From Escherichia phage UPEC03, in the sequence record MW250785: a stretch of 64,000 nt of DNA. One strand, given 5' to 3'. A program made the position numbers and the translations under genes. Below, piece by piece: positions 8,532-62,998 of the stretch; positions within the stretch are counted from its first letter, which is position 1, and every line of letters begins with the position of its first letter. Under the pieces are notes generated by a model. It made no database searches and had not been told where the DNA came from. It worked only from the letters and a program-made list of their open reading frames with translations.

Positions 8532-8608
8532 GGCCCTTTAGCTTAATTGGTTAGAGCGGGTGACTCATAATCGCGCGGTTGCTGGTTCGAATCCAGCAGG
8601 GGCCACCA
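8532..8608 (+). tRNA. tRNA-Met (anticodon CAU; could also be a lysidine-type Ile)
   Basis: Hand-folded cloverleaf. Acceptor GGCCCTT/AGGGGCC, anticodon loop CTCATAA, T-arm GCTGG-TTCGAAT-CCAGC, encoded CCA. There is one G-G mismatch at the top of the anticodon stem. Confidence 0.85.
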
Positions 8609-8613
8609 AATAC

Positions 8614-8689
8614 GCAGGTGTAGTTCAATTGGTAGAATATCTGGTTTCCATCCAGATTGTTGAGGGTTCGAGTCCCTTCACCTGCTCCA
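8614..8689 (+). tRNA. tRNA-Gly (anticodon UCC)
   Basis: Acceptor GCAGGTG/CACCTGC, anticodon stem TCTGG/CCAGA with loop TTTCCAT, T-arm GAGGG-TTCGAGT-CCCTT, encoded CCA. Confidence 0.9.
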
Positions 8690-10643: not shown

Positions 10644-10937
10644 ATGAAAACTTACAACATGAAAGAACTGGTTTGCTTCAACACTCGTCGTGAAGCCCGT
10701 GCGTATGTTCTGGCGGCTGGTAAGAATACCTCTGCTGTAATCGACCTGGGTACTGATAAAGCTGTTGGCGCACGTTGGGCTGCTGTTGTGGTTATCGCTG
10801 CTCCTGTGACTCCTGTTAAAACTCTGGTTCTGGGTGCGCGTAAAGCCGAAACTCTGAAAACCAGCACTTGCGGGGCGGGTGGTGTTCATAATGTTACGGT
10901 CATTCGAAAAAGATCTTTTAATCGAGTCGGTGTATGA
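10644..10937 (+). CDS. Hypothetical protein (97 aa)
   Basis: SD GAGGA 8 nt upstream. The N-terminal 45 aa look protein-like; the Ala/Val-rich C-terminal half is less certain. Confidence 0.5.
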   Translation: MKTYNMKELVCFNTRREARAYVLAAGKNTSAVIDLGTDKAVGARWAAVVVIAAPVTPVKTLVLGARKAETLKTSTCGAGGVHNVTVIRKRSFNRVGV

Positions 10938-11027
10938 AGGTATACGGGGAAAACATAAAGAACAATCTCCGAAGAGATTGATGTAATCAATGAATTTCTA
11001 TGTAGACCATACGTTAAGAGAGTTATT

Positions 11028-11468
11028 ATGAATATTGGTAGTGGTGATTCATACCCATCATGCGCATTGAGCAACTTCGCCCCGCATCCGTTTACGTTTG
11101 ACGGGGTAGAATGTGCATCAATGGAGGGCTTTTTACAAAGTCTGAAATTCAGCAATCCAGATATGCAAGCGCATGTGTGTACGCTGGTTGGTAAAGCCGC
11201 CAAGTTCAAAGGCAAGAAAAAGAAATGGTATCGCGATCAGACCCTATACTGGAAGGGTATGCCGATTCACCGTGAATCAGAAGCATATCAAATCCTGATT
11301 GAAAACGCGTACAATGCTCTTTTCCTGAATGACGGGTTCCGCCGTGCGCTGGCTGCAACCGGAAAAAGTACCTTGACTCATTCAATGGGAAAGAATAAGA
11401 TGAATGAAACGGTACTCACTGAACGTGAGTTTGTCCGAAATTTAACCCGATTGAGAGATCTGTTATGA
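11028..11468 (+). CDS. NADAR / YbiA (DUF1768)-like domain protein
   Basis: 146 aa. LSNFAPHPFTFDGVECASMEGFLQSLKF matches the N-terminal NADAR signature (SNF..PF..DG..Y.S.EH.FQA.KF). Confidence 0.6.
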   Translation: MNIGSGDSYPSCALSNFAPHPFTFDGVECASMEGFLQSLKFSNPDMQAHVCTLVGKAAKFKGKKKKWYRDQTLYWKGMPIHRESEAYQILIENAYNALFLNDGFRRALAATGKSTLTHSMGKNKMNETVLTEREFVRNLTRLRDLL

Positions 11469-11991: not shown

Positions 11992-12568
11992 CGGGATCGC
12001 CGTAAAATGGCAGTCGGGGTTGCCGTTCTTTTTGTCTAAACACAACATGCCGACCGATATCGCGCTGGATATGGTTACGGATGAAAAGTTCCGCGATATG
12101 ACCGAAATCTTCGGGTGTGATCACCAACTGGCGAAAATTCTCATGGAAGAATACAACAACAGTTCGTTTATTCGCTATCTAAGCGCGTATGACGATGCGT
12201 TAATTGTTATCAACCGTCTGAAAGCCAAATATGATTTTGTGGCTGTCACGGCGCTGGGAACCACTCCTACGGCAAGCCTTAACCGTATTGCAAACCTGAA
12301 CACGCTGTTCCCTTCTGCATTCAAAGAGGTTTGTGTTGTCGGTCACGGCGAAACGAAAGTACATCGTTACCTGGAAGCCAAAGCAAAATATGGCGATCGT
12401 TTAGTATGTTTCATTGATGACCTTGCAGTAAACTTGAATGAGTGTCATAACGTCATCAGTCAGTTGCCGTTATTCCATATGTTGCGTGGCGAACGTAGTG
12501 AACCGAGTGTACCTCATACTAAAGTGAATAACTGGCATGAAATTGAAAAAGCAATTGAGAACTCTTGA
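11963..12568 (+). CDS. HAD-superfamily hydrolase (5'-nucleotidase-like)
   Basis: 201 aa. TTG start with SD GAGGT. Motif I ILTDIDGI and motif IV CFIDD. Confidence 0.6.
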   Translation: MKPVILTDIDGIAVKWQSGLPFFLSKHNMPTDIALDMVTDEKFRDMTEIFGCDHQLAKILMEEYNNSSFIRYLSAYDDALIVINRLKAKYDFVAVTALGTTPTASLNRIANLNTLFPSAFKEVCVVGHGETKVHRYLEAKAKYGDRLVCFIDDLAVNLNECHNVISQLPLFHMLRGERSEPSVPHTKVNNWHEIEKAIENS

Positions 12569-13088
12569 TGAAGAAACGCAAGGTATAGAAAACCTACTAC
12601 AATGTATTCGAGTAGAACCAGAAACCGGAAAATGTTTCTGGTTGGAAAAGAGAAGTAATAAAATTCCTGCTGGAAGTGAAGCAGGTTCTTTTCATAAATC
12701 AAGTGGATATACGCGAATAAAATTCGAAAATGCGATGTACATCCGGTCACGGGTGATATTTTATTACGTTAATGGTTATCTTCCAGTGATGGTTGACCAT
12801 GTTCACGGTGTTGAATGCGGTGATATGATTTCTAATCTAAGGGAGTCCAATCAGGTAACAAATCAACAAAACCGCACACGGAATAAAAATAATACCGTTG
12901 GGTTTAAGGGCGTGTCATTCAACAAGAAATCGCAAAAATATAGCGCCAAAATCACTTTACATGGAGTGACTAAGTGGTTAGGATTTTATGATTCTGCCGA
13001 GGAAGCAAGTGAAGCATATAAGGCCAAAGCACTCGTTTCCTTTACACATAATGAAAGGTACTTAAATGATCTTACAGATTCTAAATGA
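12537..13088 (+). CDS. Free-standing HNH homing endonuclease with AP2 DNA-binding domain (paralog 1 of 3)
   Basis: 183 aa. HNH core VDHVHGVECGDMISNLRESNQVTNQQN and AP2-like FKGVSF..KYSAKI..LGFYDSAEEASEAYKAKA. Overlaps both the HAD 3' end and the ligase 5' end. Confidence 0.8.
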   Translation: MKLKKQLRTLDEETQGIENLLQCIRVEPETGKCFWLEKRSNKIPAGSEAGSFHKSSGYTRIKFENAMYIRSRVIFYYVNGYLPVMVDHVHGVECGDMISNLRESNQVTNQQNRTRNKNNTVGFKGVSFNKKSQKYSAKITLHGVTKWLGFYDSAEEASEAYKAKALVSFTHNERYLNDLTDSK

Positions 13089-14589
13089 ACTCGCTTCGAC
13101 TCTGAAAATTTCAGAGAAGGAAGCGATCCTGAAACGTAATGCAGGTAATGATCTGCTGAAAGAGATTTTCCGCATTACGTACACGAAACAGATTATGTTT
13201 CACATTAAGAAGTTTCCGCAGGTGGACGGTAAGCCAGGCACAACCCCGCTATCGAATGCTATCGCGGATTTGATGTCTGATTTGGCAACGCGAAAATATA
13301 CGGGCAACGCAGCCCGTGATCGTCTGCTGGATATCGTATCATCGGTGAACGAGAATGATCGCGAAGTGCTTCGCCGTATCATTAACCGCGATCTGGAATG
13401 TGGTGCTGGTACAACGTTACCGAACCGCGTATGGAAGAAACTCATTCCAGAACAGCCTCAATGCCTCGCTACGCCGTTTAGTGAGAAAGCCTTAAAACGT
13501 ATTCGCTTCCCTGCTTACTCGCAGCTTAAAGCCGATGGTGCGCGTTGTATGTCCGATCTGTTAGAGAATCAGATCCGCAAAGCAACCCGCGCGGGAAATG
13601 AGTATGAAGGTTTGGTGAATCTGGACAAGGATCTGAAAAAGATTCGTGAATATCTGGGTTATGATGTTGTACTTGATGGAGAACTGATTTATGTCCCTGC
13701 TGAAAAAACTGCTGTCGTTCCTTCAAACAGCGTTCCATTTAGTCTTGCTGGGTTTATGGGCGATGACGACGATTCTGTTTCTGACCTTGTGGCAGATGTT
13801 AGGCGGGAAGCTACCGAGAACGAGACACAAGCGGAAGCGAAACGCGAAGAGGGCAACGGGATTGTAAACAAATCCCTGAAAGGTACTATCAGCGACGAAG
13901 AACAGCGCAATATCGTTTATGTTGTCTGGGATATCGTACCGTATGAAGTATACTATGGCGATGCTCCGAGTGTTCAACCATATTGCGATCGTTTCTCTAT
14001 CCTGGAAGGTGCGCTGGCTGGCTCTGGTGTAACATCGGTTAAGTTGATCCCTTCTATCCTGGTGCAGAACTACGCGGAAGCGAAAAAGGATTACAACAAT
14101 TACCGCAATGACGGTAAAGAGGGTTCAATCCTGAAAAACGTTGATTTCAAATGGAAGGATTCACGCGTTGCGGATCAGGTGAAGTTGAAGAACAAAACCC
14201 CGATTGAACTGCGAATCATCGACGTGTACGAACACACCAAAGAAGCTCATAAGGTCGGAGGGTTCGTGGTTGAGGACTTATCAGGAGAAGCCAGAACAAA
14301 CACAGGTTCCGGTCTGACTGATACGGACTACCGATACGATGAAGACGGTATTAACCGCGTGTACATCCCGTTAGAAGAACGTGGTGAACTGGATCGCGAA
14401 TACATCATGGCGAACAAAGATGACTATATCGGCGCTATCGTCGAAATGGAAGTTGACGGACTCCAGAAGTCTAAAACGCGTAAGAAGGGCGAACCTGAGT
14501 TCAGTTTCTTCTTGCCAATCATCAAGAAGATCCGACGCGATAAGACCGAACCGGATGATATTCACGTTATCTTCGCTGATCTGTTTTAA
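13066..14589 (+). CDS. 30: ATP-dependent DNA ligase (gp30)
   Basis: 507 aa. N-terminus MILQILNELAS and AQLKADGARC (KxDG) resemble T4 ligase as recalled. Has an acidic insertion around residues 225-270. Confidence 0.92.
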   Translation: MILQILNELASTLKISEKEAILKRNAGNDLLKEIFRITYTKQIMFHIKKFPQVDGKPGTTPLSNAIADLMSDLATRKYTGNAARDRLLDIVSSVNENDREVLRRIINRDLECGAGTTLPNRVWKKLIPEQPQCLATPFSEKALKRIRFPAYSQLKADGARCMSDLLENQIRKATRAGNEYEGLVNLDKDLKKIREYLGYDVVLDGELIYVPAEKTAVVPSNSVPFSLAGFMGDDDDSVSDLVADVRREATENETQAEAKREEGNGIVNKSLKGTISDEEQRNIVYVVWDIVPYEVYYGDAPSVQPYCDRFSILEGALAGSGVTSVKLIPSILVQNYAEAKKDYNNYRNDGKEGSILKNVDFKWKDSRVADQVKLKNKTPIELRIIDVYEHTKEAHKVGGFVVEDLSGEARTNTGSGLTDTDYRYDEDGINRVYIPLEERGELDREYIMANKDDYIGAIVEMEVDGLQKSKTRKKGEPEFSFFLPIIKKIRRDKTEPDDIHVIFADLF

Positions 14590-32164: not shown

Positions 32165-33162
32165 TTGTAATACCCCACAACATGATCGCGGTATACGCGT
32201 TCGATGAAATCGTTCCAGAATTCGCGGTCAACTTCTTTCGGATATGTTGAAATCGCTGCAAGCCGTTCGACTTCGCCCATGACTTCTTCCAGCTTTTCCT
32301 GTACGGTTGCGAACGGTACGCCGCCAGCTTTAACCAGTTTCAGGAATGCGCTATCAGGCAGAGGATAAACGATATCACCATCTTTGTAAATCTGGATCAA
32401 CTGCATACCACCGCGCAACGCGTGACTTAAAGCCTTCCAGTCGATGCCGTTGTTGGCTTCTGCTTGTCGTGCGCGTTCTCCGTATTCATCCCAGAGTTTG
32501 TACACTGACTTACGCATTTCATCGGCTTTGATCGTGAACTGGAATTTACGCCCCAGCACTTCATAGAAGTCCTGACAACCAGATTTCATTGTCGTGTCGG
32601 TAACGAATCGGCAGAACTCGTTTGTAGGGAAACGATTCTTGATGTCAGACACTTTCACTTCACGCGTATAGCGTTTCATATCTGGTGTGAATTCCTGAAT
32701 ACCACCGATCGTTTCGGTTTCTTTCAGTACATCGACAACTTCGCGCAGTGCAGCCAGTCGGGAACCTTTCACACCATATTTTGCGGCTTGCTTGCGAACA
32801 TAACCGAACAGGCCAGTTAGTTCAGTGGTGTAAAAACGCCAGCGGTTAGCGCGGATATACTGCCAGATTTCAGAGTTAGCGATCAGCTTGTCATCCGAAG
32901 CGTGAAGCATATCGAGCGCTACGGTATCACCATCACACGCAAGGCTGATAAACTTAGTCAGACTATACAACTGACGATCAACGTCGTCTACGGTGTTTTT
33001 AGAGCTTTTATCGCCCGTGCTGGTGTCGATAGACTTCTTCGCAGTGCCTAACAGGATTTCGCGAGGATGAGGGAGATAGATCCCTTTGTAGTCTTTATCG
33101 CTTGTTGGTGTTTCCAGTCCGTAAAGATGGGATCCAAAAATCATTTCAGTAATCATTTTCAT
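32161..33162 (-). CDS. Pol-beta-superfamily nucleotidyltransferase (RlaP / PF10127-like)
   Basis: 333 aa from ATG 33162. N-terminal GSHLYGLETPTSDKDYKG matches the GS..YG...SD.D nucleotidyltransferase signature. Confidence 0.6.
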   Translation of the reverse strand: MKMITEMIFGSHLYGLETPTSDKDYKGIYLPHPREILLGTAKKSIDTSTGDKSSKNTVDDVDRQLYSLTKFISLACDGDTVALDMLHASDDKLIANSEIWQYIRANRWRFYTTELTGLFGYVRKQAAKYGVKGSRLAALREVVDVLKETETIGGIQEFTPDMKRYTREVKVSDIKNRFPTNEFCRFVTDTTMKSGCQDFYEVLGRKFQFTIKADEMRKSVYKLWDEYGERARQAEANNGIDWKALSHALRGGMQLIQIYKDGDIVYPLPDSAFLKLVKAGGVPFATVQEKLEEVMGEVERLAAISTYPKEVDREFWNDFIERVYRDHVVGYYK

Positions 33163-33920
33163 TATACAAATCTCCAATAAAACCCTTTATGAGTTTTTCT
33201 TTTACCGTTACAGCATGAACTTACATGCCCTTTGTTATACCCCATTTCAACGGCTTCCACAATACCACCATTTAAAATAGTTTCTCTTTCTGTTTTGATA
33301 CATTTCATAATCAAAGGTTTTATCAATTCCGTCTTCTTTTGTGAAATATTAGCTAATGCAATTACATTTCTGATATCAGATTCACTCATTAAATCAGAAA
33401 TCTTCTTTCTTAACCATACATAGCCTTGACTTTTGGCAAGTTTGCCGGAGCAACATTCATGAATATGACTAGGGTTAAATCCACGCAATTTCATTTCTTG
33501 CCGACCGCCTAATATGATAATCTCGTCTCCTGTTTCAAGGTTGAATCCGACAACTGGAATTATTTGCCGTTCCGACATTTTCTTTCTCGCTTCTTTCGTG
33601 AATATTGTAAGAGATTTTAATTTTCTCGCGTCGCTCATTTGCGAAGATGTCGTTTTGTATTTCTTAGTATTATGAGACATACGGAAAAAAGCATATCTCA
33701 TTTTATCACCAGCATACTTAGCAAGTAGATGATGAGCAAGATAATGCTCTTTATATGTTAAATATACTAAATTTTCGGGTTCATCAGTACCACCTAATGA
33801 CTTAGCAACGATATGGTGTATATCATAACCGCGCTTTCTATACTTTTTCGAGTAACCTTTAGGTATATCTCTTCTTTTTGCCAATGTAATTAGTTGGTCG
33901 TAAATACGCTTATAGTTCAT
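33162..33920 (-). CDS. Free-standing HNH homing endonuclease (Mob-like) with repeated C-terminal DNA-binding modules
   Basis: 252 aa from ATG 33920 (SD AGGAG). HHIVAKSLGGTDEPENLVYLTYKEHYLAHH. Two repeats of CC(S/N)GK..K.(Q/H)G(Y/F).W. Paralog of 61728-62396. Confidence 0.8.
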   Translation of the reverse strand: MNYKRIYDQLITLAKRRDIPKGYSKKYRKRGYDIHHIVAKSLGGTDEPENLVYLTYKEHYLAHHLLAKYAGDKMRYAFFRMSHNTKKYKTTSSQMSDARKLKSLTIFTKEARKKMSERQIIPVVGFNLETGDEIIILGGRQEMKLRGFNPSHIHECCSGKLAKSQGYVWLRKKISDLMSESDIRNVIALANISQKKTELIKPLIMKCIKTERETILNGGIVEAVEMGYNKGHVSSCCNGKRKTHKGFYWRFV

Positions 33921-33947: not shown

Positions 33948-33983
33948 TTAAAATCCGAACACGGTTTCCATAATCATTTTCAT
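33948..33983 (-). pseudogene. Duplicated 5' fragment of the RlaP-like gene upstream of the HNH gene
   Basis: - strand ATGAAAATGATTATGGAAACCGTGTTCGGATTTTAA (MKMIMETVFGF*) against the real start ATGAAAATGATTACTGAAATGATTTTTGGATCC (MKMITEMIFGS). The first 13 nt are identical. Confidence 0.55.
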
Positions 33984-34050
33984 CAGAATTCAACCTTTAA
34001 TGTTTTTGCGATCCCGCGCAATTCCGCGGTAGTAATAACAGGGATCATAA

Positions 34051-34598: not shown

Positions 34599-35654
34599 TC
34601 AGAGTCCCGTGAAAGCTACAACGATTTGATAGTGGTCATCGAAGAATTCCCCTTGTCGTTGTACGACCTCATGTAAGGGCATCCAGAACGCCTCTAACGC
34701 ATCGTCAGAACCGCCCATAATGCGGGGCAGACTACCATCATTGTTAGGCTCTAACTTGATGTACTGCGCCACAGTCGGTTTTGAGAAGTGTACGGAACGC
34801 TTCGGATGATCGAACAACATCGAATTGCGGATTGAACCACGGATAACCTTTTCAGGAACCTTGATCCGTACCTCTTCGAGCAGTTCGCGGATCGCACAAT
34901 CCAGGAACGTTTCATTTGCGTTTTTGTGTCCGCCGGGAAGGGCTAACGCGTCTTTACCTGGGGCGAACTTACGACGAATTACCAGCAGGTGATTGTTGCA
35001 CACAACCACACTATCACCCGTGCAACAGTTTAGCGCGTCGGGGTATGGGTAGTTTTTGAATTTCTCCAATTCGCTTTCCCATTTCTCGTATTCGTAGAAT
35101 AAACGCCAGAACGTGTCTTCCATCATCCATTTGTCGATATAATCAACGGTTGCTTGAGGAACAAAGCGCAACAGTTTCTTATCCCACCCGTTTTTATGGT
35201 TAAAGATAATCGGACGCAGATCGGTTGCTGATAGATCCTTGCCGTTAATCTGGACAGGTGGAACTGGTACGTGTGTCCATCCGAACGCTTTAAGCCAGTA
35301 TGAACCTGCATCTTTTTCGTAACCGTAGATAGCGATTTTGTCGCCTTTGGTTTCCCTGATAGCAGTACGAACAGAGGTTTTCCATTTCTCTTCGTTGTAA
35401 AGATAATCTGGAATGTGCTCAAACTGAACACGAACAACATCTTCGATCGGGAAGTTAGCGTTTAACCATGAGAAGATCATGGTTTGACGCTCACGCGCCG
35501 TCAGCGGGTTTAAAACGTTAGGGTAAGCATATGCTGAACCCAGAAGGATGTAAACGATCTTTGCTTCTCCGAGTGCTTTACGCACCATTGCTGCATGACC
35601 ATTATGGAAGGGTTGGAATCTGCCAATTACGACAGCTTTATCAAATTGTTTCAT
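34599..35654 (-). CDS. natV: Bifunctional NMN adenylyltransferase / Nudix hydrolase (NatV-like)
   Basis: 351 aa from ATG 35654. N-terminal GRFQPFHNGH (HxGH nucleotidyltransferase motif). C-terminal Nudix box GGHKNANETFLDCAIRELLEEV. Confidence 0.8.
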   Translation of the reverse strand: MKQFDKAVVIGRFQPFHNGHAAMVRKALGEAKIVYILLGSAYAYPNVLNPLTARERQTMIFSWLNANFPIEDVVRVQFEHIPDYLYNEEKWKTSVRTAIRETKGDKIAIYGYEKDAGSYWLKAFGWTHVPVPPVQINGKDLSATDLRPIIFNHKNGWDKKLLRFVPQATVDYIDKWMMEDTFWRLFYEYEKWESELEKFKNYPYPDALNCCTGDSVVVCNNHLLVIRRKFAPGKDALALPGGHKNANETFLDCAIRELLEEVRIKVPEKVIRGSIRNSMLFDHPKRSVHFSKPTVAQYIKLEPNNDGSLPRIMGGSDDALEAFWMPLHEVVQRQGEFFDDHYQIVVAFTGL

Positions 35655-38023: not shown

Positions 38024-38608
38024 TTAACAGTTCAGACCAACATTATCAAGAAGTTTTTCGTGATAATGTTTGCGACAGAGCGAAACGTATTTGTCTTCGG
38101 CTCCGATCTCAACCTGCGCCCCTTCGGTTACGAAGTTGCCTTGTGCGTCGATACGTGCAACCGTAGTTGCTTTACGCCCACAGTGACACATTCCGCGCAG
38201 TTCTCGGATCTCGTCTGCCCAGGCCAGCAACCAGTAAGAACCCTCGAACAGATTCAACTGAAAATCAGTACGCAGACCGTAAGCCATTACAGGGATTTCG
38301 AGTTCATCAACAACGCGACATAGATCGAAAACGTTTTTCTTCGAAAGGAATTGCGCCTCGTCAACGAAGATGCAAGCAATTTTATTCCGGCGCTGAATGT
38401 CCCAGAACAGATCCATATCAGGCGCAATCAATTCACACTTTTCGTTCAGCCCGATACGCGAACTCACTGTGTTTGATGTGCGGGTGTCGATTGCTGGCTT
38501 ATAGATTACAACTCGCATACCGCGCTCTTTGTAATTGTGCGCGTCCGTCAATAGTCGCGCACTTTTGCCAGCGTTCATGGATGCATAGTGATAATACAAT
38601 TTAGCCAT
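38024..38608 (-). CDS. tk: Thymidine kinase
   Basis: 194 aa from ATG 38608. MAKLYYHYASMNAGKSARLL, VDEAQFL and CHCGRKAT..CRKHY resemble E. coli Tdk and T4 Tk. Confidence 0.92.
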   Translation of the reverse strand: MAKLYYHYASMNAGKSARLLTDAHNYKERGMRVVIYKPAIDTRTSNTVSSRIGLNEKCELIAPDMDLFWDIQRRNKIACIFVDEAQFLSKKNVFDLCRVVDELEIPVMAYGLRTDFQLNLFEGSYWLLAWADEIRELRGMCHCGRKATTVARIDAQGNFVTEGAQVEIGAEDKYVSLCRKHYHEKLLDNVGLNC

Positions 38609-38831
38609 TGACACGCTCCACAAACTTAATATGATTCTGGAATTTGCCCTCACCTTCATGGTTTTTGCATGTTTTGTTTGAACAGTATATCCACCAATCC
38701 CACTCGTCGTAAGGGGGTTTGTCAATGTTCATGACGCAAATCAAAGGAAAATGACAATCCCGACAACGAACTTTTTCTATAATGTGTGCGTTAGCCAATT
38801 GAAAACCATCCTTTACCCATGAGTTTTTCAT
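38601..38831 (-). CDS. Cys-rich hypothetical protein (76 aa; start uncertain)
   Basis: CRDCHFPLIC...YCSNKTCKNH. Overlaps the upstream ORF; an alternative TTG start near 38794 is possible. Confidence 0.45.
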   Translation of the reverse strand: MKNSWVKDGFQLANAHIIEKVRCRDCHFPLICVMNIDKPPYDEWDWWIYCSNKTCKNHEGEGKFQNHIKFVERVNG

Positions 38832-44375: not shown

Positions 44376-44900
44376 TTATGTGGTTTCGTTAAAAAATGTG
44401 CCGAAAACCTCTTTCGCTTTCCGGTCATAAACGGCTTTTGCTTCTTCTGGAGTGGTATAATACCCCAAAAATTTTCTTTTTCCATCTATGTTTATCTGCG
44501 CTTTATACTTCCCATTTGCTTTGTGATAAGAAACACCTTTCAACCCCGTACTGCTGTTTGAATTACATTTCTTTTTCATCGCGTTTTGTTGGTTCGTCGC
44601 TTTCTGTAGATTTCTTGCTGTATCTCCATTTTCAACACCATACACATGATCTACGATAGGAGGAAGATAACCATTCTCAACGTAAAACACTATTCGGTGT
44701 CGCAAATACATAGAACCTTTAAAATGAATTTGGGAATACTCGTTCTTGCTTCCGGCTTCACTTCCAGGAGACATAGGGCCGCGCTGAATTTTCCAATACA
44801 CTTTTCCCGTAGATGTATCAACATCTACATAACTCAGAAGAGACTCAATCCCTTGAATCTCTTCCTGTATGGTTCTTGATGAATAACCATGACTTTTCAT
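44376..44900 (-). CDS. Free-standing HNH homing endonuclease with AP2 domain (paralog 3 of 3)
   Basis: 174 aa from ATG 44900 (TAATG coupling). VDHVYGVENGDTARNLQKATNQQN and LKGVSYHKANGKYKAQINIDGKRKFLGYYTTPEEAKAVYDRKA. Confidence 0.8.
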   Translation of the reverse strand: MKSHGYSSRTIQEEIQGIESLLSYVDVDTSTGKVYWKIQRGPMSPGSEAGSKNEYSQIHFKGSMYLRHRIVFYVENGYLPPIVDHVYGVENGDTARNLQKATNQQNAMKKKCNSNSSTGLKGVSYHKANGKYKAQINIDGKRKFLGYYTTPEEAKAVYDRKAKEVFGTFFNETT

Positions 44901-45370
44901 TACATACCCAAACGGATAATATGGATATATGGGAACGGGTGAAGATGACTTGAACGCATACACAAGGTCAGTGTTTTTGCCAGTTCAAACCGTTCGTCGA
45001 TCGTCATGTCGCATTCATCGAAAATCAGGTTGATTGCCTGATACTTGATCGTTTGTCCACGGAAAATGGTATTCAGATCTTGACGTTTCGACAGAATGAA
45101 AGACGAATCAGCGCCCTTATCCATTCCATGTTCTGCCGCAGCACAAATACCCATTTGCTTTGTCGGCGCAACGTAGATATTCAGTGTCCCTTTCGACTGC
45201 TTGATGATATCGAAAGCCGCTTTGGTTTTACCCGACATCCGGCCCATATCCAGCGCAGTTTCGAAAATAGACACACCGCCGCATTCTTGCCCCCAACGCC
45301 CATCAATGATTCGCGCAAGGTGCAGGTTACGTGACTGCTTTACAGCGTCAACATAGAATTGTGAAATCAT
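44900..45370 (-). CDS. Small P-loop NTPase-like protein (156 aa)
   Basis: Walker A-like GRMSGKT and Walker B-like LIFDECD. Confidence 0.5.
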   Translation of the reverse strand: MISQFYVDAVKQSRNLHLARIIDGRWGQECGGVSIFETALDMGRMSGKTKAAFDIIKQSKGTLNIYVAPTKQMGICAAAEHGMDKGADSSFILSKRQDLNTIFRGQTIKYQAINLIFDECDMTIDERFELAKTLTLCMRSSHLHPFPYIHIIRLGM

Positions 45371-45775: not shown

Positions 45776-45842
45776 ACATACCTCTTTATGAAAATACCCT
45801 ATGGGCTACACAGGGTATTTACGGTTTAAGAGGCGCAACGTT

Positions 45843-46241
45843 TTACATGTAACCCCAAATTGCATCTTCCGCGCGATCGCGTTTCCAGCGAATCGTCATT
45901 TCAACACTCTCCTGTTTGTCATCAGGAGGAAGTTTATCATTATTGATTTGTTCAATATATGCTTGCGCATCTGCTTCGCTACGGAACAACGCATGGAAAT
46001 TATAATGGTTGCGCCCAGTTACGTTACGATCATCCAGAGAGAATTGACCTTTATTTTCCCAATCATCATACACAGTGATTCCGTTAACAAACAGCCCCAG
46101 CCCACGATGTTCACGCGGGAAGCCAGTGATGATATGTTTTCGACCCATCTGTGCCTTTTCACCAGTGATACTGATTACTTCGTACAGGATTGCGCCAGGT
46201 TTGATATCTTTCAGGACAGCACGTTTTTCAAAAGCGTTCAT
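45843..46241 (-). CDS. Hypothetical protein (132 aa)
   Basis: ATG 46241 preceded by GAGGAATACATA. Confidence 0.55.
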   Translation of the reverse strand: MNAFEKRAVLKDIKPGAILYEVISITGEKAQMGRKHIITGFPREHRGLGLFVNGITVYDDWENKGQFSLDDRNVTGRNHYNFHALFRSEADAQAYIEQINNDKLPPDDKQESVEMTIRWKRDRAEDAIWGYM

Positions 46242-50313: not shown

Positions 50314-50337
50314 AACAATCTCCGGTTTCGTTTCTAT

Positions 50338-50372
50338 GTGTGTAAGGTATCATTACCCTACACACAACGCAA
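50338..50372 (-). promoter_or_regulatory. Early promoter overlapped by a 12-bp stem-loop (class B)
   Basis: - strand TTGCGT (50372-50367), 17 nt spacer, TACCTT (50349-50344). The stem 50365-50354 / 50349-50338 has one pair that is G-U only on the - strand RNA. Leader ATAGAAACGAAACC. Confidence 0.55.
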
Positions 50373-50379
50373 GCGATTT

Positions 50380-50580
50380 TTATTTTCCGTAAAGAACACA
50401 ATATTCTTTATATTTTTCACGGGCTTTTTCTTCATTACTAAAGGAAACTCCCATTCCAAAATCAGAACCTTCGAACGTAACATCCCACGATTCATACCCA
50501 TCTTCCGAATAATAGGAAAGTGTTATTTTACGATCTTCAAGAACAAGTTGTTCAACAACAATATCAATTTCAGTAGTCAT
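50380..50580 (-). CDS. Hypothetical protein (66 aa)
   Basis: ATGA-coupled to the upstream 48-aa ORF. Confidence 0.55.
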   Translation of the reverse strand: MTTEIDIVVEQLVLEDRKITLSYYSEDGYESWDVTFEGSDFGMGVSFSNEEKAREKYKEYCVLYGK

Positions 50581-50723
50581 AGTTCATTTCCATAATCTTT
50601 TGCTGCATCTTCGGGGGTTGCGTCCAGTCGGTAAAGCTCAACGGCTAACGGACTGGGTTTGATTTCGCGGTTCAGGATCTCACTGATACCGCGAAGGAAT
50701 TCGATATAAGGACGGAATCTCAT
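50577..50723 (-). CDS. Hypothetical protein (48 aa; below track cutoff)
   Basis: MRFRPYIEFLRGISEILNREIKPSPLAVELYRLDATPEDAAKDYGNEL. ATGA overlaps at both ends fill an otherwise 139-nt gap. Confidence 0.55.
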   Translation of the reverse strand: MRFRPYIEFLRGISEILNREIKPSPLAVELYRLDATPEDAAKDYGNEL

Positions 50724-50998: not shown

Positions 50999-51037
50999 AA
51001 TATAACAAAACCCCTCACCATAGACAAGGGGTTTCTT
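50999..51037 (-). promoter_or_regulatory. PeSL-type terminator/early-promoter stem-loop (class A)
   Basis: - strand hairpin 51034-51008, -35 TTGTCT (51027-51022), 17 nt spacer, -10 TATATT (51004-50999), leader ACACACATCGAAACGAAGGAGG. Confidence 0.7.
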
Positions 51038-51053
51038 TAACAAAAAGTGCTAT

Positions 51054-51656
51054 TTAATAGTATCCAGGATCTTTGAAGTGTGCTTTCATATATCGCAGAA
51101 TTTCACGCAACATCTGGGTTTGCTCATGTCCACACTGTGAAGCCATATCGATCATGACGCGAGTCATTTCGACGTTCTCCAAGCTGGTTATACGCTGTTT
51201 TAAGGCTTTGTTTTCCTCTTCCAACTCAACCATACGGTCATATGCTTTGATGCGCTCCAAAGGCATATCAGGGCGCTGTTTGAGGACACGGGCGCGTGAC
51301 ACTTCGCATTCGTGATTTGCTTTCCAGTGATCACGTTCACCAGCAATTTTATCATTCTCCTGGTGTAGACGTACAATCTCTTTAAGGAGGCGTTCAGTGG
51401 TATCGGGATCAAACGAAACCATGTATTGCATCAGGGATTGCAACCACAGATCCTCTTGTACCGCCTGTAACGCTTTAGGCCCAATAATGGTAAACTCGCG
51501 TTTCTTCATGTTGCTACCGCAACCGTAGTTAACGTTACCCGCAATCGAACCTGGTTGATTAGTACCATCCCATTTGTCACCGATAACAGGTTTTACTTGC
51601 TGAATAGCACGATTCAGCATTTCGAATTCTTCATCTAAAATCATTTCATATCCCAT
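51054..51656 (-). CDS. Coiled-coil hypothetical protein (200 aa)
   Basis: The central RDHWKANHECEVSRARVLKQRPDMPLERIKAY segment recalls prophage ead/Ea22-like proteins. That is memory only and unverified. Confidence 0.55.
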   Translation of the reverse strand: MGYEMILDEEFEMLNRAIQQVKPVIGDKWDGTNQPGSIAGNVNYGCGSNMKKREFTIIGPKALQAVQEDLWLQSLMQYMVSFDPDTTERLLKEIVRLHQENDKIAGERDHWKANHECEVSRARVLKQRPDMPLERIKAYDRMVELEEENKALKQRITSLENVEMTRVMIDMASQCGHEQTQMLREILRYMKAHFKDPGYY

Positions 51657-52503: not shown

Positions 52504-52812
52504 TTAATCGAATTTTTCTGGCAACTGGTCTACAAGTGCTTGAGTTTGATGAAGTTCTTCACTCAATTTATCACGATAATGAACCAATTCGCGGGTTCTT
52601 GATGCGGAATAGCTAATGAGTTTATCAGCGGTAGCGGTGTAACCGTAACCAGCACACGCGATTTCCAGTTTTGCGTTATCGCCGTTAGGTACGCGGATAT
52701 GAGCATACGCCAGCAAGTTTTTAACCGCTTGCAACAGTTCATGATCTTCTTTGCCGATGATAAACTGGTTTGGTTCTGCTGAATCCATATACAGTTCTTC
52801 GTCTTTGTTCAT
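52504..52812 (-). CDS. Hypothetical protein (102 aa)
   Basis: ATGA-coupled to the DUF262 gene. Confidence 0.55.
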   Translation of the reverse strand: MNKDEELYMDSAEPNQFIIGKEDHELLQAVKNLLAYAHIRVPNGDNAKLEIACAGYGYTATADKLISYSASRTRELVHYRDKLSEELHQTQALVDQLPEKFD

Positions 52813-53342
52813 TTTGCAGCCTTATACATTTCCAGGACGCGGTTCATGTGATCTTGAGATTGAGGCACACCCGCGAAGTTCAGTTTGATGAAGAATTCCA
52901 GACGATCCTTTTTGGTGCATTCATCCAGCCCCAGGGCAGGTAATGAAATGTTTTCAAAGGCTCGTTGTTCGTGTCGTGGTATTTCGTCCCAGAACAAACG
53001 GGAACCGTCCGGCATAGGAATCCCAATTTCACCTTCGTAGACTTTGATAATCGTCGTCAGGCGTTGTTTGCCGTCGATCACTTCTACCCAATGGGTTTCG
53101 TTGAACTGACTATCAACCGCGATCGCAATGATACCGCAAGGGAAACCACTGATCAGGGTAGTCAGAAACGCATCTTGCTCTTTCTGCGTCCACACATAGG
53201 GGCGCTGGTAAGATGGATTCAGATCCAGATCTTTATTCTTCCACCAATGCAGATAACTCCCAACCATGATCGCGTGATCGCGACTGCGAAAAGTTAACTG
53301 ATCGCGGATACGGTTATGAACCGGAATATCATCTTTAGACAT
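52809..53342 (-). CDS. Stand-alone DUF262 (ParB/GmrS-like NTPase) domain protein
   Basis: 177 aa. NPSYQRPYVWTQKEQDAFLTTLISGFPCG and VIDGKQRLTTI (DGQQR motif). No DUF1524/HNH nuclease half. Confidence 0.7.
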   Translation of the reverse strand: MSKDDIPVHNRIRDQLTFRSRDHAIMVGSYLHWWKNKDLDLNPSYQRPYVWTQKEQDAFLTTLISGFPCGIIAIAVDSQFNETHWVEVIDGKQRLTTIIKVYEGEIGIPMPDGSRLFWDEIPRHEQRAFENISLPALGLDECTKKDRLEFFIKLNFAGVPQSQDHMNRVLEMYKAAK

Positions 53343-59332: not shown

Positions 59333-59489
59333 GAGCGAAGCGAACACACGAACGAAGTGAGTGTTATGTACGATGTACTGTTTATAATATTTATATTTTA
59401 TATATAGAGAAAACAGTACATTTCCGTATACTTTTTATACAATCGTTAACTATCCGTCTTCGCTTCGCTTGACGGAACTCGCTTCGCTC
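59333..59489. repeat. Inverted repeat GAGCGAAGCGA / TCGCTTCGCTC flanking an AT-rich core
   Basis: Arms at 59333-59343 and 59479-59489, each next to a GATC. Further CGAAGCGAA-type sub-repeats lie in both arms. Confidence 0.7.
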
Positions 59490-59517
59490 GCGATCTAATT
59501 TTTAGTTGATCTATTCA

Positions 59518-59540
59518 ATAAATAGGTATATCATACCTAT
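59518..59540 (+). promoter_or_regulatory. Late-promoter-like ATAAATAG followed by an 8-bp palindrome
   Basis: ATAAATAG (59518-59525). ATAGGTAT-ATC-ATACCTAT (59522-59540). About 38 nt upstream of ATG 59563. Confidence 0.45.
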
Positions 59541-59562
59541 ACTTTCAAAAGAGATTGAAAAC

Positions 59563-60348
59563 ATGAAATCATTCAAAGAACTACTTTCTGAATCTGTTCA
59601 GAACAAAAAATTTGCTAAGACCGTTGATCTGGTTGACCGTGGTAACGCTGCAAAAGGTCAGATCGGTTTCCTGCATTTTGCACATGGTGCTGATTACGAT
59701 GTGTATGCGCCGGACTCCCACGATCTCGCTTACTTCGGTAAAGGTGTTGTCCGCCTGAAAGGTAAAACCACTGGTAAGACTCAGGCAGCGTATATTGACT
59801 GGGCGAAAGGCACTGTTTCATTCTACAGCGGTGATCCTGCTGACGATCTGAAATTTGACAAGCCACTGAAATTCAAAGGCGCTTCCCTGTACAAAGAAGC
59901 CGAAGAAAACCTGGATCTGTACAATCAGTTGGCGGAAGATTTCGAGATTGATCTGCCTCTGGATGAAGCATTGGTGAAAGGAAAGGTGTACAAGCTCCCA
60001 AGTAACGATATGTGCTTGCTGTATACCGGACGTACCAAAACCAAAGAAACAGGTGAATACGCCGTGTTTACGGTTGTAGATGCCTCTGGTAAGCCTCGTC
60101 TGGTATCGGGTAAACGCTTTACCCAGGAATACAAAGGTGATGTTCTGTCTAAACTGGTTCTAGCTGAATCAGAAGATTTGAACGAAGCCGCTAAAGATAT
60201 TCGCGAAAAAGTTATTGCGGTGTTGGTGAAACGTGGGTTTAACGAAAAAGACGCAGAAAAGATGGTTGATAAAAACCTGAAAGATGCGATGAAGGTTCGA
60301 CCTGGCGCAACCCCTGGCAAACTCGCGGAAATCGTGAGTATCCTGTAA
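59563..60348 (+). CDS. Internal head protein-like protein with capsid-targeting-sequence-like N-terminus
   Basis: 261 aa from ATG 59563. MKSFKELLSE|S mirrors the T4 IP capsid targeting sequence MKTYQEFIAE| (prohead-protease L/I-x-E site). Lys-rich body. Confidence 0.6.
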   Translation: MKSFKELLSESVQNKKFAKTVDLVDRGNAAKGQIGFLHFAHGADYDVYAPDSHDLAYFGKGVVRLKGKTTGKTQAAYIDWAKGTVSFYSGDPADDLKFDKPLKFKGASLYKEAEENLDLYNQLAEDFEIDLPLDEALVKGKVYKLPSNDMCLLYTGRTKTKETGEYAVFTVVDASGKPRLVSGKRFTQEYKGDVLSKLVLAESEDLNEAAKDIREKVIAVLVKRGFNEKDAEKMVDKNLKDAMKVRPGATPGKLAEIVSIL

Positions 60349-60352
60349 AAAT

Positions 60353-60383
60353 AAAGCCCCTTCCTTTCGGTTGGGGCTTTTTT
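60353..60383 (+). terminator. Rho-independent terminator
   Basis: AAAGCCCC...GGGGCTTT followed by TTTT, between convergent genes. Confidence 0.75.
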
Positions 60384-60384
60384 G

Positions 60385-61239
60385 TTAATATCTGTTCCAA
60401 ACTTTCTTCGCGCTGTATGGTTTTCCTTTGGACTGGAAAGCCTGTGTAGGCAACCAAACTGCTTTCGCCCAATCTTTTGGGGCGATCTCTGCAAGTGGTG
60501 AACGTAGATGGGCTGGCAGATAGGCTTTGATCATTTGATCAGCCCCGCGCATTCCCTTCACGTTGTTCCAGTTGATTTTCAGTCTGGTTTTGTTAGAAAG
60601 TCGATCTGTTGATCCGTAGCCACGTTTCAGGAGTTCTTCTAAAAACTCTTGACGTGCTCGCGGTGGCGCATAGTGCAAGTTCAGCCCGTAAAGAACCAAG
60701 TTACCCGCTTTCGAACGTCCTGAACCCAGGAAAATGATCAGCGGGAACCGATCCCAGTATGGCAGGGTGTCTTTGTATTTCGCATCGTAGATGAACGTAT
60801 ACAAACGACCCGTTGCTGGTTTCGCAACCCTGTGCGTCTTAATGCTGGTTTTGATGAAATCACCAAACCAATCGGTCGAATCTTTCTGACGTTTCGCAGC
60901 GGTTACACCAACAGTCATTTTCTTCAAACTGTTGCGGAAATCGTTTACGATATCAACCGCGTGTTTTTTGCGATAATCATTACGTTTGCGTCGGGCTTCG
61001 GTTTCTGCTTTACGGCGTTCGATTTCATCATCAATCTGCTGCTTATAGCGGTGCATAGACTTTGTGAACGTTGCGTATGCAATCCCGTTTTCGTCCGCGA
61101 ACTTTTTGGCTGTCATGCCTTTTAATTTTGCGCGTCGGAATTTGATACCAAGTTCAACCCATTCACCCAGCTTTCGCTTCGGTGGTGGTTTTGGCTTGTC
61201 TTCTTCTGCGATGATCTCGAACTCAAAAATAAAACTCAT
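60385..61239 (-). CDS. 2: DNA end-protector protein gp2
   Basis: 284 aa. YDAKYKDTLPYWDRFPLIIFLG and LNLHYAPPRAR are typical of gp2 as recalled. Confidence 0.8.
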   Translation of the reverse strand: MSFIFEFEIIAEEDKPKPPPKRKLGEWVELGIKFRRAKLKGMTAKKFADENGIAYATFTKSMHRYKQQIDDEIERRKAETEARRKRNDYRKKHAVDIVNDFRNSLKKMTVGVTAAKRQKDSTDWFGDFIKTSIKTHRVAKPATGRLYTFIYDAKYKDTLPYWDRFPLIIFLGSGRSKAGNLVLYGLNLHYAPPRARQEFLEELLKRGYGSTDRLSNKTRLKINWNNVKGMRGADQMIKAYLPAHLRSPLAEIAPKDWAKAVWLPTQAFQSKGKPYSAKKVWNRY

Positions 61240-61260
61240 AATTCCCTCCGTTTAGGGTAT

Positions 61261-61728
61261 TTATTGCCCTTTCCATCCGAACACACGTTTCAATGTGTCC
61301 TCTGTGATGATCTTGAACTCCCAGCCCTTTTGTTTTGCTGCTGCATTCGCGGCTTTCCATTTGTCAATGTTTACTGCATACGTATACAGTGCATCAACGA
61401 ATTTCTTTTTGTTGTGAACGTTGTTGTTCGCTGGCTTAGGTGGGGGCAACGTTTCTTTCATCGGTTTGACTTCCCAAAGGTAGGTCACTCCATTATCCAT
61501 TTCGACATAGAAATCCATGAAGTAACGCCGTCGCTTTCCGTCTGCGTTGCTGAAATAAGGGATCACAACGCATTCTGAATTCCACCTCTTTACGTGGGGA
61601 TTTCGGTCTAACCAATTCATTATATATTTTTCCCATGAAGAACGATATGTTATTTTTCTGGGATCTCCTTTATACTTTTCTATCTGTTGTGGCATAAAGG
61701 AACCTTTGTATGTCTGTCTTCCAGTCAT
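61261..61728 (-). CDS. 4: Head completion protein gp4
   Basis: 155 aa. KYKGDPRKITYRSSWE..VIPY..YFMDFYVE..WEVKP resembles T4 gp4 as recalled. Confidence 0.8.
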   Translation of the reverse strand: MTGRQTYKGSFMPQQIEKYKGDPRKITYRSSWEKYIMNWLDRNPHVKRWNSECVVIPYFSNADGKRRRYFMDFYVEMDNGVTYLWEVKPMKETLPPPKPANNNVHNKKKFVDALYTYAVNIDKWKAANAAAKQKGWEFKIITEDTLKRVFGWKGQ

Positions 61729-62396
61729 TATTTCACCTTACAATTATCAAAATGCCACCTATACATTGCTCTGGGGTTTCCTTCTTTTCCGCAATGTGGA
61801 CATATTACAGGTTTCGTGTTTTTAGCTGAGTCGCGCATCTTTTGTTTTGCTTCTTCGCTAATAATTCTTCCTGTTAACGAAGCGCTAAGGTTATCTCTAT
61901 GCTCTTTAGAACGGTTTGACGCAACTCTACTCATTTTTTGTTTGAATTCATCACTTCTCTTTATTCCGGTCATCCCTTCGGAAATACTTTTCTTGTGTGC
62001 TTCTGATAGCGGTTTCCCTTTTATTGATTCTCGTCTTTTTCGTTTCCAATCATCGCTACGTGGTGGGTGTTTAGTCCCTATAGAATTGATTCGATTTTGT
62101 TCGGCTACTTTCTCTCTGATCCATCCGTAAGTTCGAGAAGTCATTCTTCCAGAATGAAATCTTGATGCCATTGACATCATCTTACACGCGTATATAAGTT
62201 TTCCGTTTGTTGGGTACATTTTGACGAGTAGTTGATGGGCGAGATAGTGTTCTTCGGCAGTGAGACAAACGATATTTTCGGGTTCGTCCATTCCTCCCAT
62301 ACACCGAGGGATGATGTGATGGTTTTCTGAATACCCGCTTATAGTTCTTGATTGTGCTCTTTTGATAAGAAGTTCATAGTGTTTGCGGTAATTCAT
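61728..62396 (-). CDS. Free-standing HNH homing endonuclease (Mob-like)
   Basis: 222 aa. HHIIPRCMGGMDEPENIVCLTAEEHYLAHQ plus basic repeats (SEAHKKSISEG.., SKEHRDNLSAS.., EEAKQKMRDS..). Paralog of 33162-33920. Confidence 0.8.
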   Translation of the reverse strand: MNYRKHYELLIKRAQSRTISGYSENHHIIPRCMGGMDEPENIVCLTAEEHYLAHQLLVKMYPTNGKLIYACKMMSMASRFHSGRMTSRTYGWIREKVAEQNRINSIGTKHPPRSDDWKRKRRESIKGKPLSEAHKKSISEGMTGIKRSDEFKQKMSRVASNRSKEHRDNLSASLTGRIISEEAKQKMRDSAKNTKPVICPHCGKEGNPRAMYRWHFDNCKVK

Positions 62397-62405
62397 GCGT
62401 ATTCC

Positions 62406-62432
62406 CTAAATAGTAGTAATATTCATATTTAG
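62406..62432. promoter_or_regulatory. Divergent late-promoter motifs (CTAAATAG + strand, CTAAATAT - strand)
   Basis: CTAAATAG at 62406-62413, 31 nt before GTG 62444. CTAAATAT on the - strand at 62432-62425, upstream of ATG 62396. Confidence 0.55.
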
Positions 62433-62443
62433 GAGAAGCCATC

Positions 62444-62998
62444 GTGTTGTTCTCATTCTTTCCACCAGTTGATTACAAAGGCACACCAACTACTGATATC
62501 TACCGCGATTATCGTTTTTACTTTAACCGCGTGATCAGGAATTATAAGCCGCGTACATATCAACTGACAGGTTCATTAAGACCCGAACAATTAGCGGAAA
62601 CGCTATACGGAAACCAGCAATACTACTGGGTTATCCTGATGCTTAACGATAATTACGATCCGTTTTACGGATGGATTACCGATCAGGAAACGGCTTATCA
62701 ATGCGCTATCCAGCGTTATTCAAAAGCAGGTGGTGAACAGGTTCTTTATCATATGGATGGTAAGGGCAACCGTTATTACAATTTGGTTGAAGACCCTACG
62801 AATCCCGGTCATTGGTATGACAAAGGCGATAAGAACATGCGTTATTTGCAGTACCAGGGAACATTAGTCCCTGTAGATATTTATGAAGATGCGGTGCTTC
62901 AAAATGAAGCAAAACGAACCATCAAGATTATTAACCCCTCTGATATTCAATCATTTGTAAGTGATTATATCAAGGAAATGGAAAAGGCAAACCTATGA
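62444..62998 (+). CDS. 53: Baseplate wedge subunit gp53
   Basis: 184 aa. GTG start with SD AGGAG. MLFSFFPP.., YGNQQYYWVILMLNDNYDPFYGWIT matches T4 gp53 as recalled. Confidence 0.88.
   Translation: MLFSFFPPVDYKGTPTTDIYRDYRFYFNRVIRNYKPRTYQLTGSLRPEQLAETLYGNQQYYWVILMLNDNYDPFYGWITDQETAYQCAIQRYSKAGGEQVLYHMDGKGNRYYNLVEDPTNPGHWYDKGDKNMRYLQYQGTLVPVDIYEDAVLQNEAKRTIKIINPSDIQSFVSDYIKEMEKANL

Follow-up and report, generated by a model that had tools for sequence, protein, structure and literature searches.

How did five putative homing endonuclease genes (HEGs) come to lie against conserved genes in a 64,000-nucleotide (nt) stretch of Escherichia phage UPEC03 (sequence record MW250785; the whole stretch is hereafter called the window), and have they moved there recently? 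By sequence, the source of the window is a Pseudotevenvirus, a T4-like phage of the RB16/RB43 group, with 97-99% identity to the Pseudotevenvirus genomes EcL22g, Olmo, RB16 and others. An earlier reading of the letters alone (the sequence-only reading) had listed five HEGs, and the five open reading frames (ORFs) are all found where it had placed them (Table 1): three encode an HNH nuclease of the I-HmuI type joined to an AP2 domain (HEG1-3), and two encode Mob-like HNH proteins with putative NUMOD tails (HEG4 and HEG5). We call these genes free-standing because each has its own ORF between, or overlapping, the ends of its neighbors, and because a search of the window with Rfam returned two tRNAs and no group I intron; the possibility of intron-borne HEGs was rejected on this ground. 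Overall, the comparisons reported here support the view that HEG1-5 are free-standing homing endonuclease genes with a history of recent intronless homing, a reading to which we assign a probability of roughly 80%.

Each HEG, together with 700 bp on either side, was compared with 50,697 phage records, and a record was counted as HEG-positive when a single match covered at least 80% of the query, since a match of that extent requires the HEG to be present. This comparison of presence and absence, which had been proposed as a check, bore out the expected variability, and the uniform presence that would have told against homing was not seen: among related records HEG1 occurs in 14 of 176, HEG2 in 21 of 173, HEG3 in 22 of 148, HEG4 in 12 of 176, and HEG5, at the DNA level, in 0 of 63, HEG5 being found instead on 5 contigs. 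Phage Nando, which aligns over 92.4% of the window with 95.9% identity, carries none of the five, and the largest segments of the window that are missing from Nando are exactly the five HEG segments (565, 544, 928, 538 and 715 bp, for a sum of 3,290 bp). Over the same region RB16 has only HEG1 in common with the window; it lacks HEG2-5 and has other AP2-HNH genes in three places (nrdA/nrdB, beside nrdC.11, near vs.1), with a GIY-YIG Seg-like gene lying between its genes 2 and 4. Conversely, no orthologs of the RB16 HEG genes 3, 5 and 6 or of the Seg-like gene were detected in the window by tblastn, and no further HEG paralogs emerged when the five window proteins, the other four HEGs of RB16 and RB16p168 were used as tblastn queries. 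The density of HEGs (five per 64 kb, or 7.8 per 100 kb), which the sequence-only reading had taken as a sign of active or recent homing, turns out to be ordinary for HEG-rich T4 relatives, as the totals are 15 for T4 and 10 for RB16 (Table 5 of PMC2993671).

The same distributions bear on a different explanation, according to which the HEGs persist chiefly through an advantage that they give the phage, either by excluding co-infecting genomes or markers or by acting as accessory nucleases or DNA-binding regulators, their spread as genes being secondary. All five HEGs are co-oriented with conserved neighbors (ligase, methyltransferase, nrdC.11, phoH, gene 4) and joined to adjacent genes via TAATG or longer overlaps, and they presumably share transcripts and some translational coupling with them, which would suit a role in the phage; yet relatives at ~96% identity manage without any of the five, and thus no HEG is required for the function of the neighboring gene. 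AP2 is a transcription-factor domain in plants, and HEGs next to essential genes, with HEG-linked exchange or competition, have been described in phages (PMC10448857 and PMC13096335), but the sites vary in their occupants (AP2-HNH or Mob-like by nrdC.11, GIY-YIG or HNH around gene 4), which is the behavior of selfish elements rather than of dedicated partners. Since marker exclusion is mechanistically the same as homing, this explanation concerns selective benefit and not mechanism; we regard it as improbable.

Table 1. Positions in the window of the five predicted HEGs, of the divergence tracts next to them and of a relic duplicate (lengths in amino acids, aa).
Feature	Coordinates	Strand	Basis
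HEG1, AP2-HNH homing endonuclease gene, 183 aa	12537..13088	+	ortholog of 'putative homing endonuclease RB16 4'
Divergence tract by HEG1: last ~80 gp30.2 codons	12323..12568	+	comparison with HEG1-less Nando
HEG2, AP2-HNH homing endonuclease gene, 178 aa	30224..30760	-	ORF, HNH_3 27.2 bits, phrog_99 3e-48
Divergence tract by HEG2: last ~100 C5-methyltransferase codons	30742..31035	-	comparison with Nando
HEG3, AP2-HNH homing endonuclease gene, 174 aa	44376..44900	-	ORF, Pfam, empty-site alignment
Divergence tract by HEG3: first ~300 PIN-PhoH codons	43467..44366	-	comparison with HEG3-less EBPL
HEG4, Mob-like HNH endonuclease gene, 252 aa, putative I-HmuI/NUMOD-like C-terminal domain	33162..33920	-	ORF, Pfam, phrog_655
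Divergence tract by HEG4: first ~65 nrdC.11 codons	32971..33162	-	comparison with Nando
Relic duplicate of nrdC.11 5' end (MKMIMETVFGF, stop), 11 codons	33948..33983	-	sequence read
HEG5, Mob-like HNH endonuclease gene, 222 aa, putative NUMOD3 repeats, C-terminal Cys/His motif	61728..62396	-	ORF, phrog_655
Divergence tract by HEG5: first ~60 gene 4 (head completion) codons	61549..61728	-	comparison with Nando

All five HEGs abut a one-sided tract of divergence, ~150-900 bp in length, in a neighboring gene, and the changes in these tracts are mostly synonymous. Together with the patchy distribution, this pattern supports recent HEG mobility with co-conversion of adjacent donor sequence. The tracts also indicate where the targets are likely to be, namely in the 3' ends of gp30.2 and of the methyltransferase, and in the 5' parts of phoH, nrdC.11 and gene 4. 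Four of the targets guessed by the sequence-only reading (methyltransferase, phoH, the RlaP-like gene nrdC.11, and gene 4) are therefore in keeping with the tracts found there; the fifth, ligase, is not, as the tract is in gp30.2. The gene labels RlaP-like, PIN-PhoH, C5-methyltransferase and ligase were all confirmed with Pfam.

HEG5 is inserted between the start of gene 4 and a retained short control region between gene 4 and gene 53, and its stop codon shares a TAATG with the ATG of gene 4. Its best protein match in the phage records has 52.7% identity; the exact protein is encoded on the 5 public contigs, which come from independent runs, and always between gp53 and gp4. In the tract the identity to Nando falls to 72-80% at the nucleotide level (25 codons with synonymous changes and 5 with a different amino acid), against 93-100% in the remainder of gene 4 and 95-100% on the gp53 side. 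Three of the HEG5 contigs differ outside the block, one by 22 mismatches in gene 2 and another by 159 in gp53/gp5, while in the same three contigs HEG5 is identical and the adjoining ~430 bp of gene 4 contain only two mismatches. A HEG and tract that are nearly invariant in differing backgrounds argue against the idea that the HEGs are old vertical residents, perhaps inactive now, whose distribution came about by losing them repeatedly or by mosaic recombination of a general kind at hypervariable loci, an idea to which, on the balance of this and of the evidence that follows, we give little credence. Between the tail of HEG5 and that of the RB16 GIY-YIG Seg-like gene, which lies one gene away, there is 31% identity (E=6e-10), a likeness in keeping with the shuffling of modules for nuclease activity and for DNA binding. 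One contig (Logan SRR16019039_38, 36 kb) is 100% identical to window positions 59408-64000 over the 4.6 kb compared; it probably derives from the same phage or is the source of the window, a phage that the August 2025 collection of phage records lacks. Gene 4 itself (61261-61728, minus strand) matches the Pfam family Tn7_TnsA-like_N (TnsA-like endonuclease N-terminal) above cutoff, with E=7e-23.

The stop of HEG4 overlaps the ATG of nrdC.11, which encodes an RlaP-like nucleotidyltransferase, again in TAATG, and orthologs of HEG4 in relatives are annotated as mobE-like. Nucleotide identity to Nando is 79-83% in the HEG4 tract and 97-100% in the remainder of nrdC.11. The Slopekvirus KMI9, which belongs to another genus, has a copy of HEG4 with 97-100% identity between flanks that are only 72-85% identical; vertical descent cannot account for near-identity of the gene between such diverged flanks. 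HEG4 is furthermore enclosed by a direct repeat, formed by the relic of the nrdC.11 5' end upstream and the working nrdC.11 start (MKMITEM…) downstream, and window positions 33955-34037 match the nrdC.11 start of Nando and its upstream region at 82%. The site was not previously empty, as the HEG4 allele is devoid of three small ORFs found in Nando and RB16. A 21-codon ORF at 33983-34048 on the minus strand, MIPVITTAELRGIAKTLKVEF followed by a stop, is a remnant of the 3' end of a Nando_0125 homolog; the remainder of that homolog and the counterparts of Nando_0126 and Nando_0127 (~1.15 kb) are missing from the window. We also considered whether the 2.4-kb interval from HEG2 to HEG4 might move as an 'HEG island', and rejected this on the identity profiles of EC-F1 and phi1_146015, in which no co-inherited block is seen.

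At the phoH site the empty allele can be read directly. HEG3 takes the place of a conserved 54-bp spacer that separates a 156-aa gene from phoH in the HEG3-less alleles of RB16 and EBPL, and for vertical residence with loss to leave the same clean spacer in both, identical precise deletions would be needed. Relative to EBPL, codons 1-300 of PIN-PhoH are 68-89% identical at the nucleotide level, codons 302-448 are 98-100% identical, and the opposite flank is 95-100% identical. In GAP161, where the gene is annotated, HEG3 and its flanks are 100% identical to the window, the tract included; and among the 60 records listed for this site, flank identity is 94-99.5% in those with the HEG3 of the window and 86.5-89.5% in those that are empty. 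HEG3 stops 9 nt ahead of the phoH ATG. Its start was correctly described as overlapping the stop of the upstream gene in TAATG; the 'P-loop' label of that gene (44900-45370) did not hold, there being no Pfam match at E<0.001. A longer GTG ORF of HEG3 runs to 44963, and relatives annotate the ATG start. The spacer of the HEG3-less alleles (L005 6686-6741, L004 11600-11655) contains a GC-rich, conserved hairpin, TACGCGG-N9-CCGCGTA, which could be a terminator or an RNA-processing element that was lost with the gain of HEG3.

HEG1 has 99.5% aa identity to 'putative homing endonuclease RB16 4', which occupies the same gp30.2/ligase junction in RB16 and whose UniRef name is 'RB16 HNH(AP2) 4'. The overlaps described by the sequence-only reading are present, with 32 nt of gp30.2 and 23 nt of ligase; its 'HAD' label for gp30.2 could not be sustained (no Pfam match at E<0.001). 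The last eight codons of HEG1 (LNDLTDSK and stop) once formed the C-terminus and stop of gp30.2, and by ending on them HEG1 has kept the original 23-nt overlap with ligase; gp30.2 has in turn received a replacement C-terminus (…HEIEKAIENS and stop), which overlaps the start of HEG1. Nucleotide identity to Nando is 52-88% in the tract, 93-100% farther upstream and 99-100% on the ligase side, and RB16, which carries HEG1, is identical through the tract. Ligase was therefore rejected as the best guess for the target of HEG1, as its 5' region is nearly identical to that of the HEG1-less allele and the divergence is in the 3' end of gp30.2. The 5' region of ligase (13100-13700, plus strand) is 100% identical to HEG1-less Nando and 89-97% identical to HEG1-carrying RB16, and a better match to Nando than to RB16 implies a recombination crossover at the 3' border of HEG1.

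HEG2 overlaps the 3' end of the C5-methyltransferase gene, as claimed, by 19 nt. It is 99% identical in EC-F1, where it is annotated, and in iPHaGe-KPN-11i. The tract is 73-89% identical to Nando at the nucleotide level over codons 211-300 of the methyltransferase (31 codons with synonymous changes and 7 with a different amino acid), and the last 7 codons are less alike again; outside the tract the identity is 92-99%. In the HEG2 allele the methyltransferase has a new C-terminus, 4 residues longer. In HEG2-positive EC-F1, the ~400 bp closest to HEG2 match the window at 98-100% identity. A further claim, that the last codons of HEG2 carry the -35 element of the next promoter, was not upheld: the consensus scan made no promoter call, and the TTGCAT hexamer in question is also present in HEG2-less alleles, so it was not introduced by HEG2.

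The proteins themselves fit the proposed role. HEG1-3 are paralogs (pairwise identity 40-47%, E from 1e-32 to 1e-42) and have in common the N-terminal motif pointed out in the sequence-only reading (RTLDEETQGIENLL, RTIEEEQKGIDEFL, RTIQEEIQGIESLL) and the HNH core DH..GVE.GD...NL. Their layout is that of an I-HmuI-type HNH (beta-beta-alpha-metal) nuclease with an N-terminal beta-sheet, followed by an AP2 DNA-binding domain. A word-indexed homolog search gave only three proteins, and a profile was needed to reach the family, which comprises ~169,000 cluster representatives at E<=1e-10. Single-sequence searches of the PDB with the HEG proteins gave marginal matches only; a profile of 53 homologs matches I-HmuI (1U3E) with E=1e-9 and, in agreement with the AP2-like C-terminus that had been proposed for HEG1-3, the plant AP2/ERF structures of WRI1 (2e-16), TEM1 (6e-9), ERF096 (2e-7) and AtERF1 (1e-5). 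Residues D87, H88, N100 and N109 (HEG1 numbering) are retained in all three proteins and align with D74, H75, N87 and N96 of I-HmuI, in which D74-H75 is the Asp-His general-base pair, N87 a structural Asn and N96 a metal-binding Asn; among the 53 family members D87, H88 and N100 never vary, and the conservation of N109 is 90% or more. I-HmuI nicks one strand. Inactivating substitutions in the HNH core had been named as evidence that would speak against active or recent homing; HEG1-3 show no loss of catalytic residues and the ORFs are full length, which again is not what old, decaying residents would lead one to expect. In model comparisons the fold of HEG1-3 resembles a solved HNH homing endonuclease, and the AP2 part is a three-stranded sheet packed on a helix that can be superposed on solved AP2 domains; in the HEG1 model the last ~11 residues, which correspond to the stretch borrowed from gp30.2, are of low confidence.

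With single sequences the Pfam scores are lower. For PF13392 (HNH_3, cutoff 24.8 bits) HEG2 scores 27.2, HEG1 19.2 and HEG3 21.2, and most AP2-HNH homologs carry this family in precomputed annotation; for PF00847 (AP2, cutoff 33.3 bits) two of the genes score 21.9 and 24.4, and HEG2 has no match. The Mob-like identity of HEG4 and HEG5 is confirmed by phrog_655 'homing endonuclease' (3e-33 and 8e-64). These two proteins are 46% identical over the first 84 residues, where the HNH motif (HH...N...H..AH) can be read in both (HHIVAKSLGGTDEPENLVYLTYKEHYLAH, HHIIPRCMGGMDEPENIVCLTAEEHYLAH); with the HNH family of Pfam (cutoff 21.4 bits) they remain sub-threshold at 18.8 and 16.9 bits, respectively. 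HEG4 scores 27.0 bits with I-HmuI_NUMOD-like, which is exactly the cutoff, and HEG5 scores 17.9 bits with NUMOD3, under the cutoff of 20.4. No naming match to the HEG proteins was found in NCBIfam.

Regulation of HEGs in the T4 style relies on late promoters and on hairpins that sequester the ribosome-binding site. The exact late-promoter box TATAAATA does not occur upstream of any HEG. Boxes with one mismatch lie 18-24 nt upstream of HEG4 (GATAAATA, 33945-33938) and HEG5 (TATGAATA, 62427-62420), and across the window such boxes are no commoner than chance (51 observed, 66 expected); for this reason dedicated late promoters for HEG4 and HEG5 were dropped from consideration and no claim is made for them.

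How far the divergence at the HEG borders exceeds that of the rest of the window was assessed by permutation. The minimum identity of the 200-bp flanks is 0.80-0.88 at the five sites, against a median of 0.97 for the whole-window null, and the presence of a divergent tract directly at all five HEGs is hard to attribute to vertical residence (joint Fisher combined p=0.004; p=7e-4 for the mean of the five sites), with the limitation that the baseline of this test is one comparator genome and that the null positions are not independent. This limitation is one of several points that weigh against recent homing. Taken one at a time the sites reach only p = 0.05-0.12, because HEG-free patches of similar size and 58-75% identity exist elsewhere (35000-35500, 45800-46200, 63500-63800) between relatives that are otherwise 95-100% identical; divergent patches free of HEGs are in fact common, ~8% of 100-bp bins having less than 90% identity, as general mosaicism would predict. 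The HEG2 site is not empty in the alternative allele but is filled by another gene: HEG2-less relatives carry there a conserved gene of 143-146 aa (RB16p117/Nando_0119), truncated in Olmo, so that the locus holds a full-length RB16p117 homolog, a truncated one or HEG2, and could be a recombination hotspot with interchangeable cassettes, much as the mosaic explanation has it. In more distant, Slopekvirus-type records the phoH site is taken by a diverged HNH gene, a finding that points to long occupancy and fits long vertical residence as well as it fits recent invasion. To these points must be added the single-sequence Pfam scores, which are under the curated cutoffs for AP2 in 3 of 3 genes and for HNH in 4 of 5, and the fact that no clear promoter of its own was found for any HEG.

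Recent homing, which we continue to prefer, can be interpreted in the light of the intronless homing of the seg and mob genes of T4, an established model on which the proposed mechanism is based. In a mixed infection the HEG enzyme would nick or cut the HEG-less allele of a co-infecting relative in or near the neighboring gene; recombination would repair the break with the HEG-carrying genome as template; and the HEG would be copied along with adjacent donor sequence. The donor allele, differing from the recipient at many mostly synonymous positions in the tract, would resist cleavage. A cassette inserted in a coding end brings a replacement for that end (the C-termini of gp30.2 and of the methyltransferase, the N-terminus of nrdC.11), and with the ends so supplied the host genes stay intact. 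Cleavage, the positions of the targets, immunity and current activity of HEG1-5 are what we infer from these comparisons.

A broader proposal may be put forward, tentatively and as less likely than not; it has two parts. The first part is that HEG cassettes routinely bring diverged replacement ends, a splicing-free equivalent of the intron, by which one and the same piece of DNA may preserve the host gene and at the same time protect it from cleavage, with HEG1, HEG2 and HEG4 as examples. The second is that in HEG5 the nuclease has been swapped on a shared targeting module, so that this uncatalogued Mob-like enzyme would have a DNA-binding tail, related to that of the Seg-like protein, aimed at the gene 4 region.

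The resemblance to known systems is close in most respects. The HNH-AP2 genes of RB16, RB43, RB49, KP15 and GAP161 belong to the same phage group as HEG1-3 and have the same HNH_3 + AP2 architecture; the sets differ, HEG2-5 of the window being absent from RB16 and genes 3, 5 and 6 and the Seg-like gene of RB16 being absent here. I-HmuI of Bacillus phage SPO1 (1U3E) has the same D-H...N...N active site as HEG1-3, and the tail of HEG4 matches I-HmuI_NUMOD-like at the cutoff; I-HmuI is, however, encoded in a group I intron and has helical and helix-turn-helix C-terminal DNA-binding domains, whereas HEG1-3 are free-standing and have AP2. Like the Mob and Seg genes of T4, HEG4 and HEG5 lie between conserved genes, vary in their presence and are flanked by co-conversion-like tracts in a neighboring gene, but for HEG5 no protein in the phage records searched exceeds 53% identity. 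A study centered on ICP1 (PMC10448857) likewise found HEGs by conserved or essential genes, sharp shifts of identity at HEG borders and shuffling of modules; the HEG-bracketed islands in that case exceed 10 kb, in contrast to the much shorter, one-sided tracts of the window.

The occurrence of these genes in the group is well documented. AP2-HNH elements were noted in RB43 and RB49 by Nolan et al. 2006 (PMC1524935); Petrov et al. 2010 (PMC2993671, Table 5) list 6 HNH-AP2, 1 mob-like and 3 GIY-YIG genes for RB16, and 3 HNH-AP2 and 1 mob-like for RB43; and Kushkina et al. 2013 (PMC3861415) report 1-6 HNH-AP2 genes per RB43-group phage, and none in Lw1. On the strength of these three papers the HEG class and its variable occurrence in RB16/RB43-type phages are already published (2006-2013), and the HEGs of the window are a well-documented case of a known phenomenon, of the quality of a textbook annotation example, and not a discovery. 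What is modestly new is HEG5 as an uncatalogued Mob-like allele, the anatomy of the replacement ends at HEG1, HEG2 and HEG4, and the predicted target regions for five uncharacterised enzymes, including members of the phage AP2-HNH class. The searchable literature yielded no description of a phage AP2-HNH enzyme that cleaves DNA or homes, so that the class still rests on inference. Its wider interest lies in the proposal that the DNA-binding domain of plant AP2/ERF proteins arose from it (Magnani 2004, cited in both PMC1524935 and PMC3861415). For phage therapy and taxonomy, the comparisons show that much of the difference in gene content among near-identical Pseudotevenvirus isolates is a matter of these selfish genes and not of host-range or virulence functions.

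A few other features of the window may be recorded. The two tRNA genes, at 8532-8605 and 8614-8686 on the plus strand, correspond to the tRNA-Met and tRNA-Gly of RB16. Apart from the HEG segments, smaller segments of the window have no counterpart in Nando (10912-11051, 38608-38790, 50314-50585, 51008-51170 and 51330-51640). A 177-aa ORF at 52812-53342 on the minus strand, which is not among the five HEGs, is 88.7% identical to RB16p168, annotated in RB16 as similar to a DUF262 and HNH endonuclease domain protein; in the window this homolog appears to be conserved rather than polymorphic. Finally, Nando_0063 (L012 3135-3554), directly upstream of the RNA ligase gene, is labelled 'homing endonuclease', and in RB16 this position is taken by DenA endonuclease II; the label is likely a difference of naming and not a further mobile gene.

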